Positions 47,241 through 52,428 of a stretch of DNA of 64,000 bases are shown here, in pieces. Origin of the DNA: Phyllosticta citribraziliensis (taxonomy: Eukaryota); the NCBI RefSeq assembly GCF_038025025.1, contig NW_027117338.1:1674001-1738000 (forward strand). Direction: 5' to 3'. Position 1 is the first letter of the stretch, and the number at the start of each line of letters is the position of its first letter. The notes under the pieces were generated by a model, which saw only the letters and a list, made by a program, of their open reading frames with translations, did no database searches and was not told where the DNA came from. A program made the position numbers and the translations under genes.

Positions 47241-48789
47241 ATGGAGGAAGACCGCGCGGCGACGAATCTGGGGCCAGAACCAGTCGAAGAACTGAACGCG
47301 GAGCAGAATTCGGCTCCTAAGCAACCCAAGAGACGGTTCGTTGGAAGGAAAACCGCAGCCGGAACAGCAGCAGCAAGATCAAATCCCGACCCAAACGCAA
47401 ACATCGAAGATAGCGGTGCAATTCAAGGCAAGAGAACCAGAAGAAATGATGTCCAAACTCATGCTAATAGATTAGGCAGTCGCACCACCACGGAGAACAG
47501 CTCGCGCGCTCAACAACATCCCCGCGTCCATCCTCGAGGACCCCGACATCAACGAAGCCATATCCCTTCTCCCTACAAACTACAATTTCGAAATACACAA
47601 GACGATACATCGCATTCGCTCCAATGACCACAAATCAGTCGCTCTTCAGTTCCCTGAGGGACTTCTCCTGTTCGCCACCACAATCTCGGACATCCTGACG
47701 CAGTTTTGTCCCGGAATAACCACAACGATTATGGGAGACGTTACATACGGCGCATGCTGTATAGATGACTTCACTGCGCGGGCGCTGGGCTGCGACCTGT
47801 TGGTGCATTACGCCCACAGTTGTTTGATTCCCGTGGCAGTCACAAAAATCGCAACATTATACGTCTTCGTCAGTATCGGCATAGACACGCAGCACCTAGT
47901 CGACACGATACAACGCAACTTCGCTCCAGGCAAGACTATCGCCATGGTTGGCACGATACAGTTCAACGCCACCATCCACGGCATCGCACCACAGCTACGG
48001 CGAGAAGGCTACGAAGTAGTCGTCCCACAGATCATGCCTCTCTCCAAGGGCGAAATCCTCGGCTGCACGTCGCCACGACTCGCCGGTCCCAAGTCCAAAT
48101 CCTCTTCTCTCCTCCCATCAGCCACCACAAAGGCCTCCAAATATGACCCGCCATATGCAGACCTCATTCTGTACCTGGGAGACGGCCGCTTCCACCTCGA
48201 ATCCGCCCAAATCCAAAACCCGCACTTGCCCTCCTACAGCTACGACCCGTACAGCCGGCGCCTAAAGCACGAGACGTACGCCCATTCCGACCTCTACGCC
48301 CTGCGCACGACGGCGATCCAGTCAGCGCGCAAAGCCAAGAAATGGGGACTGATTCTCGGCGCCCTCGGACGCCAGGGCAACCCCCACACGCTGACCATGA
48401 TCGAAAACATTCTAAAGAAGAAGAGGATCCCGTGCCTCAAGATCCTGCTGAGCGAGATCTTTCCCGGCAAGCTGCAGCTGATGAGCGCGAGCGAGGAGCA
48501 GAAGAAGCCGCAGCAGGCGGGCTCCAACGATGGCGACTGCGAGGATGGCGGCGTCGAGGCGTGGGTGCAGATTGCGTGCCCGCGTCTGAGCATCGACTGG
48601 GGCTACGCGTTCCCACGGCCGCTGCTGAGCCCGTACGAGGCGCTAGTCGCGCTGGGCGTGCGAGAGGCCAAGTGGATGGATGCGGCGGAGAGGGGCGACG
48701 ACGCGGCCCAGGAGGTCTATCCCATGGACTTTTACGCCAAGGAGGGACTGGGAAGGACGACGGCGGGACAAGTAGAAGTTGTAGCATAA
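47241..48789 (+). CDS. DPH1: Diphthamide biosynthesis protein 1
   Basis: [80 protein letters not shown]. Confidence 0.96.
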
Positions 48790-49051: not shown

Positions 49052-51927
49052 TCACCGAATAGTGTCCAAACCATGCCTGTCCGCACCATGCAGCTCCTCC
49101 AAAATCTCACTGCCGCCCAGCGCACCCAACGGCTTCGCCTTCCTGCGCTCCTCGCTCCACACCTCATGAAACTTGATGCTGGTGTCGCTCGTGGCGACAA
49201 CGATGCAGCCCTCGACCTGGGTACGGGACCACCAAGCGCCACCCTCACCGCGGGTACGCCCGTCATTGGGACCGCCGGGATACGCTATGGCGAAGAGGGC
49301 ACGGTGGTCGTCGGGCCAGGGGACGGCGACGAGCTGTTCGCAGGCCGGCCAGCTGAAGACGGCGACGCGATACGGGTGGTCTGGCTGCGCAAAGCCAAAT
49401 GTCGCGCAGATCTCGCGTCGCGTCGTGCTCCAAATGAGCGACGTCACTTGGGCGCTGCAGTCGATGGTGGCTAGGCATGCGCCGCTGAAGGTGTGGTAAA
49501 AGTGGATGCATCGGTCGTTGGACCCGCCGCCGATGGCTAGCAGACCGCGCTGCCACGGGCAAAAGGCCATGGCTTTGACGGCTGCGTTGAGAGTCCAGCA
49601 ATGCTTTGCGGCTGTTGCGTCAATGTCCGTCACTTGGAAACGATCCTTCATTGCTGCACAAAAGTTGTTGAGCGAACCAAAGAGGCGCTTGGTATCAAAA
49701 AGAAAACACTGATTGTCGTTGCCACCCGAGGCGAAAAATTCACCGTACGGGGACCACGCGAGGCCACATATCTGCTGGGAGTGGACGTTGATTCGGGCAA
49801 GCAGGGTCATTGCACCTGGCCAATTGAAAAGGTCTCGAGAGGTGACGTCGGGCCATTCCACAGAAAAGAGATAGACGTGACCTTCTTCATCGCCAACCAA
49901 GAGCGTCTCCGTACTGGCCACCAAAGCCGGGTCCCGAATCGAGGATTGCTTGACTGTGTTTGGACTGAAGGAGAGACATGATATGGGAGCTGGTTGCCGA
50001 GCTTTGAATCGAGGTTCTTCGTCAAACAGACTCCACAGGCAAACGGAGCCGTCAGCGCGACCAATGGCCAGTATGGCTTGGCCGCCATCGCTGGACGAGA
50101 AAGATAAAGAGGTCACATGTGCTGTGTAACTTGCGTTGATACTTTCAGGTGTGCCCACACCTCGTGTCTCGGACCACAAGTAGACGCTGTGGGCAAGACC
50201 GACGGCAAGACAGTTAGCCGTGCGCGAGTAAGCAAGTACGGTGCAGTAAAAGTCATCCCGGAGTCGCGGCGCATCGAGTACTGTGCATGATGTCAGCAGA
50301 AGGTGTCGCGCGTAAGAGGCCAACGTATCTGAAGGGGATGGTTGGAACAGGTCTTCTTTCTCGTGATGACTTCTTTGGGTCTGTTGCTTGTCAGCATATT
50401 TAAGCAAATTGTGATGATAGCAAGGGAACGACTTGTAGTGCATCCTTCTCTGATCCACTGGCTGTTTATCCAGGACGGAGCGCGAGAAGTATTCTCGCCC
50501 GGAGGAATTCCTGGCTTGTCAAAAGATCCAAGCACACGGCTAGACGTATCTATATCCATTGCATGCGCCAGCCGGCGCTCATGCTCCTCCTGAGCACTCT
50601 CAGAGTCGACCTGGGTGAGGAACATGGTCGTATGCAACGGAGCGTTGGTCCCGCTGCTCAGCATGCCCCCTCTGCCATCGGGTATGCCAGGTACACTGTC
50701 CGTGACTATGGCAGATCCGCCGACATTCCACACTGCTCCGTTGCTGACCTCACGACTGCCATGTCGAGGAGCTAGAATACCTTCCGGGCTGGGTGAGCTT
50801 GGGCCGATTCCAGCAGGTCGAACAGCACCTTGGAGGTTCTGGTACGATTGGATCCTTGTGCTGCGTGGAACGTGTTGGCCAAAAGGATCAAACTCAGGAT
50901 GTCGTTGGCGTGTGAATTTCTCGACCTCAGACAAGTTTTCCGCCGGCGTGCTCAATCGCAATGTCTCCCTGGAGGTTGTGGGTGATTTCCGCGGAGGAAT
51001 AAATCTGTCCAAGCACCTGCTTGCGATACGTTCTCGCACATGAGAGCCACTGGGGAAAGATCCTCTCCGCATTTTGAAAATCGAGCCACGGTCTCGAAGC
51101 GCAAGCGGCGACAGAATACTCGCTTTACGTTCTTGCTGCGGGAACGGATACGCGTCAGCCGCCTGAGTTGCCGGGATGAGAGGCGTTGGTGTTTCCAGCA
51201 TATCACGACCAGGACTTGGAAATGCAACGTTGACCGGATTGGTGAGATCAATGGACATCGCGTGCCTTCGAGCCGTATCGTCCGAGCTTCCACCAGGTAC
51301 AGAGGTGGCATCTGGAAGCCTAATGTCTCCATCGGCATCTTTGACCTGACAAATGTCGTTCTCATCCAAAGAGAGTTTCAATAGCCCACCAGAGATGGAT
51401 TCGTCGGCGGGAGAGGCATCAGGCATGTCCACATCTTCATCCATGCCATCGATCTGTGTGAGGACATCAGAAGGAGCCAGAAAGTTGTTGTTCTCGTATG
51501 ATTTGGATGGGCAAACTTGTCCTCTCAGAGCCCATTTTGGAGGCTGAGAACTGTCGGACAGTCGTCGCTAACGGCGTATCGAGCTCCCTTGATTCTGATA
51601 TGTTGGGTTGAGAGAAAAGGTGCTGGCCAAGTCGAAGACCGGCTTCGGAGGACTGCTCGGAGGAGTCAACAGGTGCCCCTTCACAGGTTCCGATCTAGTA
51701 TTTTTATGATTTCCAAATTGAACACGCTTTGAAGAGTCCGAACTGCTTGCGGGGTATCCTTGGCTGTACGAATGGATGGATTTTGGTGGAGTCGGCGGCG
51801 GGGTAAGAGTTGGGATGTTGGAAAAGTCTAAGCCGCTGCCGGCCTTTGGCAAAACAGAGTGATCAGCATAGCGAGACTTTTCCAATCCGGTAAGAAATCT
51901 GGGCGAGTCCTTCTTTGCGGGCTCCAT
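49052..51927 (-). CDS. AMA1: Meiosis-type APC/C activator Ama1 (Cdc20/Fizzy WD40 family) with in-frame TAG and AT-AC intron
   Basis: C-box DRFIP, PFR|VLDAPRLRDDFY, HSQQICGLAWS, ASGGNDN, AAVKAMAFCPWQ, GGGSNDRCIHF, QVTSLIWS, C-terminal IR tail. Upstream ORF 51568-51927 is in frame with 50293-51444 across a single TAG. Introns 50381-50432 and 50283-50328. Confidence 0.88.
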
Positions 51928-52428
51928 GTTGACGCTGACTGTTGGGCGGAAAAGCGCGAGGCGCGAACGAGGACAAAAGTTGGGAGGACGTAGTTTTGAT
52001 TGAGGTCAACGCGACAAGGTACCAGCCCGCTGTGGAACACGCTGGGACGCAGGACGAAGACAGTGGAATCTAGACAAACGCGTCCAGGGGAAAGAAAATC
52101 CGCGACGAGTGCCGTCCTGATGGGGAATTGAGCGAAGAGCGAGGACAGCGGCTGGAGGTAATAGCAATGATTTGGCCAGGGACAAAGAGATGCAACGTCT
52201 GGCGTGAAACCTGCTCGTTAGTAAAATATCGGCGACCCTGAGGCTGCTGGAGAGGAAAGGTCAAGGAGGTTGCAGGTCATCGGGTGACGTTTGGGTAGCG
52301 GTCCGGGTACGATTTCCGATGACGAAACCGGAGAGCGCGCTAGACACCCAGACCCTGCCACCGAAGCTTACCTCCTCCACAACAACAACTCCAGCCCTTT
52401 CTCAGCCCAGCCCGCCCAGGAAGTTGAA

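Follow-up and report, generated by a model that had tools for sequence, protein, structure and literature searches.

An AT-AC intron and an in-frame UAG in the AMA1-type gene of Phyllosticta citribraziliensis

The window analysed here is a stretch of 64,000 nucleotides from contig NW_027117338.1 of Phyllosticta citribraziliensis (Dothideomycetes). At positions 49052-51927, on the minus strand, it holds an AMA1-type gene for an activator of the APC/C. Judged from their open reading frames, its neighbours are a DPH1-like gene on one side and, on the other, a divergent gene resembling a prenyltransferase. The product of exon 3 matches the CDC20/Fizzy WD40 family PF24807 (209 bits, E 1e-61, cut-off 200), and the WD40 domain is identical over 408 residues to a P. 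citribraziliensis model. The closest protein matches come from Phyllosticta (97% and 93% identity), many close orthologues carry AMA1 as their source name, and with the orthologue P0011 as query the top PDB matches were Cdc20 and Cdh1. Two further members of the Cdc20/Fizzy family are present in the same genome. Comparison with orthologues agrees with the first-pass annotation, which had called the gene AMA1; at the sequence level, its assignment to the Cdc20/Fizzy activators of the APC/C is supported, and a place in the Ama1 subgroup is suggested by the names of close matches. The DRFIPPR motif resembles the C-box, and the IR tail matches the C-terminal motif, of such activators (Table 1).

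Table 1. Features of the AMA1 locus, in positions of the window
Feature	Positions	Strand	Comparison
Exon 1; ATG at 51927, 498 codons + 1 nt, long low-complexity N-terminus	50433..51927	-	Start matched in the alignment by those of P0243, P0244 and Diplodia P0123
In-frame TAG, codon 120, replacing Trp; candidate A-to-I base is the A at 51569	51568..51570	-	Trp in P0243
Met162, first in-frame ATG after the TAG; possible bypass start upstream of the C-box	51442..51444	-	
C-box-like DRFIPPR, residues 307-313	50989..51009	-	D307, R308, F309, P312 and R313 invariant in 10 aligned sequences
Intron 1; 52 nt, phase 1, GT-AG, donor GTCGTT without +5G, branch GCTGAC, CAG	50381..50432	-	
Exon 2; 52 nt, encodes ...RRPVPTIPF-R leading into the WD40 domain	50329..50380	-	
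Intron 2; 46 nt, phase 2, U2-type AT-AC, donor ATACGT, CAC end, AG directly after	50283..50328	-	
Exon 3; CDC20/Fizzy WD40 and C-terminal IR tail, intact	49052..50282	-	IR, then stop
RNA contig ends of three runs (X1 52282, X3 52283, X4 52275)	52275..52283	.	May mark the 5' end of the AMA1 transcript, although contig ends are no proof of a start

With both introns removed, the gene reads as 925 codons in which the TAG is the sole internal stop; in-frame methionines follow it at residues 162, 168, 224, 243 and 286. Removal of just one intron shifts the frame, as does use of the AG two bases downstream of the AC with exon 2 kept. Intron 2 has its branch sequence, GCTGAC, at 50297-50292 (minus strand). 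The frame also survives removal of any of several single GT-AG introns, among them the 152-nt skip of exon 2 adopted by NCBI models. The two-intron path alone restores the junction PTIPFR-VLDAP, whose counterpart is IPFKVLDAP in human Cdh1 and LPDRILDAP in Cdc20 (alignment run with P0011). The first-pass annotation had described this anatomy well: the premature UAG, the GTCGTT donor, the 52-nt exon and the AT-AC intron are all present on the minus strand, skipping of exon 2 between canonical GT..AG sites (152 nt) is frame-neutral, and the conserved segment before the WD40 domain is lost unless both introns are taken out. Its description of the neighbouring genes as nearly all canonical did not hold, since an intron of the DPH1-like gene (47428-47479, plus strand) is GC-AG and was spliced in three of four RNA runs, and the donor GTTCAA of the divergent neighbour, spliced in all four, lacks the +5G as well.

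These four RNA runs (X1-X4) come from this organism or a relative, and their contigs carry no stage or strand information. Introns of neighbouring genes are joined in the four runs. Among the pieces listed from the same runs, no spliced AMA1 joint was seen, and neither an exon 2-skipped joint nor stage-specific splicing nor editing was observed for AMA1; contigs of X1, X3 and X4 span both of its introns unspliced. A single RNA contig (47104-52282) spans the DPH1-like gene together with the entire AMA1 locus, and overlapping convergent or antisense transcription of the two genes is possible. The end of one X2 contig coincides with 50282, where exon 3 begins, which is what a branch of the assembly graph at the AC junction would produce; this was seen in one run and is not taken as evidence. 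Indirect support for excision comes from other sources. One Logan cluster, 80% identical to AT-AC lichen loci, contains full-length forms (P0194, P0259) on contigs of 3.2-3.3 kb in which both introns are out, and another form in that cluster (P0256) stops right behind PFR. Residues of a read-through model imply an AT..AC intron in Paraphaeosphaeria minitans, and other models have the exact junction. Among 64 NCBI models from Dothideomycete clades that bear the AT-AC intron, 4 have the correct junction; this low number is due to the AT-AC intron, and Ama1 is therefore widely mis-annotated in those clades.

The distribution of the intron was followed in metagenome contigs with a pattern blind to splice sites, which returned at least 117 stretches, corresponding to 88 distinct loci including the window. 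Among the matches listed, intron 2 is AT-AC in 29 of the 88 loci (window included), GT-AG in 15, missing in 39, AT-AA in one and AT-AG in one; in the remaining three, it has slid by 2 nt to GT-AG, has an AC acceptor with no donor found, or is too short to call. Both +5G and +6T are present in all 31 AT donors among these matches, not one of which is ATATCC, and the branch A of the AT-AC introns mostly lies 11-12 nt before the intron end. U2 snRNA was found in the genome; searches for U12 and U6atac, both run without a positive control, were empty. The U2 matches above the Rfam cut-off number six, with varied scores, on C1, C6, C9, C11 and C12 of the assembly (G000). Folding gave no significant structure in intron 2. 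A stwintron and AT-to-GT editing of the donor were also considered and rejected, as the GT with a nearby AG shifts the frame and the donor A is preceded by G, not U. Judged from these signals, the 46-nt AT-AC intron is real and of the U2 type.

In its AT and AC ends, U2-type donor (ATANGT), branch signal and conservation in orthologues, it resembles the U2-type (type II) AT-AC introns of human SCN4A and SCN5A (PMC1557818). Unlike those introns, it is short, fungal and spread across several classes, with AT-AG, AT-AA, GT-AG and the 2-nt slide as derived states. Among the matches listed, an AG comes directly after the intron in 27 of the 29 AT-AC loci but in 4 of the 15 GT-AG loci, a contrast whose significance is overstated because the loci are related to one another. 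This AG could aid recognition of the acceptor or preserve the exon skip. No report of an AT-AC intron in AMA1 was found in the largely open-access literature searched.

On a WD40 tree of 146 sequences, AT-AC introns fall in Pleosporales, Botryosphaeriales, Dothideales, Lecanoromycetes, the clade that includes Pseudogymnoascus and, next to the Terfezia clade, a single locus; in Sordariomycete loci intron 2 is GT-AG or absent. Parsimony reconstructs AT-AC at the Dothideomycete node (clade support just 0.78), GT-AG for Sordariomycetes, and either AT-AC or no intron at the root. Four loci (L073, L080, L112 and L050) show states through which the intron may have been converted: AT-AA, AT-AG and GT-AG variants in a Leotiomycete-like clade and, in a Capnodiales-like locus, the slide by 2 nt to GT-AG.

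Turning to the TAG at codon 120, the P. capitalensis-like reading frame P0243 has Trp at exactly this codon, within the well-aligned segment WRRLSDSSQPP.WALRGQ, and the window gene has therefore undergone a change from TGG to TAG. A Trp at this codon was found in none of 66 distant orthologues (67 N-termini aligned), only the congener having one, and a search of representatives gave no sister-species peptide ending at the TAG (two matches, one of them P0243). The position lies in an unconserved region upstream of the C-box and every recognisable motif, and since five in-frame ATGs come after it, bypass is possible. The hairpin at the TAG is weak and not significant (z 0.96). Over the WD40 domain, 365 of 408 residues are identical to P. 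capitalensis, a homothallic endophyte, compared with 368-374 for other congeners. On sequence evidence, the gene is intact apart from the in-frame UAG, which stands where the ancestor had Trp. The suggestion that it is an editing site gained support from comparison, namely from the Trp of the congener and the recurrence of TAG at Trp described below, but not from RNA: 51569 is unedited in runs X1 and X2, whose contigs carry no stage or strand information.

Across the family, 22 stops stand in aligned context (88 loci, among the matches listed). Thirteen are TAG at Trp, with no TGA at Trp and no stop at Gln; three others lie in intron 2, three far upstream, and three are TAG at residues other than Trp. 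In 43 complete last exons, restricted to those that end in IR and have no more than one internal stop, all six internal stops are TAG, five of them at an invariant Trp; this filter, like the pattern scan, disfavours badly decayed genes. Of 37 Dothideomycete loci, 12 carry TAG at Trp, one of them (L062) called by eye, whereas none of 27 loci from Lecanoro-, Eurotio- and Leotiomycetes does (matches listed, groups taken from the tree; p=0.0007, without phylogenetic correction). The Dothideomycete cases amount to about ten events at seven sites among the matches listed, and outside the window these sites lie within the WD40 domain, where no bypass is available. Loci L019 and L066 share one such TAG at dS 1.35, with dN/dS of 0.045 overall and 0.022 behind the TAG; for several other pairs dS was saturated or not computable. 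Decay of the gene (dN/dS near 1), which the first-pass annotation had put forward as an alternative, is unlikely for the family. The same two loci have a second shared in-frame TAG (SLG*QS) some 390 codons upstream of the GAVW motif, which may precede the start or be another corrected stop.

In annotated genomes, the same stops appear as truncations or skipped segments in models of Aureobasidium namibiae, Dothideomycetes sp. NU457 and Friedmanniomyces; the NU457 model skips residues at the L019/L066 site, and the stop of L060 recurs in two other assemblies and falls in the segment skipped in A. namibiae, where A. melanogenum has Trp. CAG (328) and CAA (295), which are RIP targets equal to TGG (522), were in no case turned into a stop. 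No clear enrichment of editing motifs was found flanking the TAG sites against the TGG background (n=14), and the sequences after the TAG differ from site to site and share no readthrough motif. Stops outside the pattern suggest that decay may be under way at some loci: L018 has TAA at Glu, and the Mycosphaerellaceae-like L017 has two in-frame TAGs, neither at Trp, which may reflect decay or a non-ancestral correction. A TAG in L009 was dropped as a Trp site, being absent from Terfezia proteins. The recurrence of TAG at Trp under purifying selection suggests sexual-stage A-to-I editing in Dothideomycetes, and this family-level signal is stronger than the case for the window TAG.

The precedent is FgAMA1 (PSC33) of Fusarium graminearum, in which a premature stop is corrected by sexual-stage A-to-I editing (PMC4817773, PMC10776026) at levels of up to 63% (PMC10776026). 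The gene family, the in-frame UAG derived from TGG and the repeated independent origin of the stops are shared between that system and the present one. The differences are that the gene described here is from a Dothideomycete, that editing was not observed, that several different Trp sites are used, that the Ame1-like copies lack MV, and that Sordariomycete loci have a GT-AG intron 2 or have lost it. Premature stops have also been recorded in single species of other classes, their editing status being left undetermined (PMC10776026). Editing has been reported in Sordariomycetes and Pyronema and not found in Aspergillus nidulans or Botrytis (PMC11156358), with which the contrast above between 12 of 37 and 0 of 27 loci (among the matches listed) fits. 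Pseudothecial fungi have been named as untested (PMC7306014), and reviews leave it open in which classes of ascomycetes mRNA is edited (PMC11156358, PMC7306014). No report of editing in Dothideomycetes was found in the largely open-access literature searched, nor was there any in the text consulted from PMC13199489, PMC10041177, PMC5496914, PMC12366691 or PMC13431901. The motif of fungal A-to-I editing is described in PMC9600606.

The Sordariomycete activator Ame1 has MV before its catalytic Ser, needed in Fusarium, and the supplement of that study lists two entries each for Diplodia and Botryosphaeria (PMC11087585). The P. citribraziliensis genome has three DUF726 genes, two of them Ame1-like (L124 on C5 and L125 on C1) and a different third (L126). 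Matched by spacing, L124 and L125 have RS and KS in place of MV, so that any editing here would need another activator; the duplicate Ame1-like copy is a candidate. A second corrected-stop gene was not found in the few families tested in this genome (SPO22, kinases and DNA-methylase): a TAG beside the SPO22 domain is the acceptor of an in-frame intron, TAGs in ten kinase matches are intron ends, and the DNA-methylase matches have none.

The interpretation offered in the first pass was that these features act together, as a selected lock of several layers (TAG, weak donor, small exon and AT-AC intron, with an inactive exon-skipped isoform) released in sexual development. In its favour are the retention of both introns in RNA contigs of three runs from which neighbouring introns had been removed, and an exon 2 length of 3n+1 in nearly all resolved loci among the matches listed; with the AG that follows the AC, this makes skipping frame-neutral across most loci. 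There is also a parallel in Saccharomyces cerevisiae, where splicing of the orthologous AMA1, likewise with a non-optimal intron, depends on Mer1/Nam8 and an intronic enhancer, AYACCCUY (PMC3082912), and it is plausible that the intron acts here as an analogous brake on expression. However, AYACCCUY is absent from both introns of the window, no skipped joint appeared among the pieces listed from the four runs, and transcription running on in antisense from the convergent neighbour may account for the unspliced contigs. Further, the layers do not travel together. The position and phase of intron 1 are conserved in relatives but the weakness of its donor is not: in AT-AC loci, 16 of 17 resolved donors have +5G or resolve to another site, leaving the window as a clear exception. 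TAG at Trp is unlinked to the state of intron 2 (5/19 vs 6/16, p=0.72). Finally, two housekeeping genes of the same genome have U2-type AT-AC introns that the reading frame requires to be removed, namely U1-C (L148:1374-1426, C2; 53 nt, followed by a 6-nt micro-exon) and ISU1 (L147 ~1310-1500, C10; here a CAG shortly before the AC competes with it), neither with an AG directly after the AC. Vegetative cells must therefore splice such introns, and that of AMA1 is not a sexual gate by itself. A coordinated stack of gates was accordingly not borne out, and the lock is regarded as improbable.

Another alternative, which is unlikely but deserves the most weight among the rivals, is that the window TAG is a private nonsense change with no editing involved, either harmless through a downstream ATG (starts at Met162 to Met286 keep the C-box, WD40 domain and IR tail) or an early lesion in a rarely mating lineage. 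The position of the TAG ahead of all recognisable motifs, the Trp of the congener, the unedited RNA and the lack of another corrected-stop gene in the families tested would all suit this explanation. TGG can also become TAG by a CpA-to-TpA mutation on the opposite strand, as in RIP. Against this, the WD40 domain is not accelerated relative to other congeners, TAGs in other Dothideomycetes stand within that domain where bypass is impossible, and the equal RIP targets CAG and CAA gave no stop. The nearest named species is heterothallic (bioRxiv 2020.04.14.040725), which would again favour private nonsense. The UAG might instead be passed at translation with the RNA unchanged, by stage-specific readthrough or a suppressor tRNA, as the unedited RNA and the Ame1-like copies without MV would allow. 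Near-cognate insertion of Trp, though, is expected at UGA and not at UAG. The 13 TAG against 0 TGA at Trp sites (matches listed) run counter to that preference and the varied following contexts offer no common readthrough motif, making this explanation very improbable.

On balance we lean towards reading AMA1 as a working gene that combines an AT-AC intron ancient in Pezizomycotina with a young, editing-type stop, the two being independent of each other. The intron would be removed by the major spliceosome, with U2-type donor and branch signals and A..C ends in place of G..G, joining the motif ahead of the WD40 propeller; its splicing is probably less efficient than that of a GT-AG intron and may dampen leaky expression, and no stage control is claimed for it. 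The TAG would be a recent change from TGG, tolerated through A-to-I editing of UAG to UIG (read as Trp) in sexual tissue, as in FgAMA1, so that outside sex translation from the normal start would end after 119 residues. The editing at this TAG, its stage and its enzyme are inferred, and the weak donor and the frame-keeping exon skip would be by-products. The features are real and of known kinds, in a new setting.

A broader reading is put forward more tentatively, as one we come close to favouring: Dothideomycetes may possess sexual-stage A-to-I editing of their own, independent of an MV-type Ame1 and perhaps dependent on a second DUF726 protein, and a brake on AMA1 may have been installed repeatedly in ascomycetes, in yeast through Mer1-dependent splicing, in Pezizomycotina through an ancestral AT-AC intron and in Sordariomycetes and Dothideomycetes through an editable UAG, with the intron having become GT-AG in the class with the strongest editing. 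A TAG within an invariant WD40 Trp of a named species offers a ready marker for editing in ascomycete classes. If the broader reading is true, the known range of editing would grow by a very large class, in which the activator would be another one or one yet to be named.
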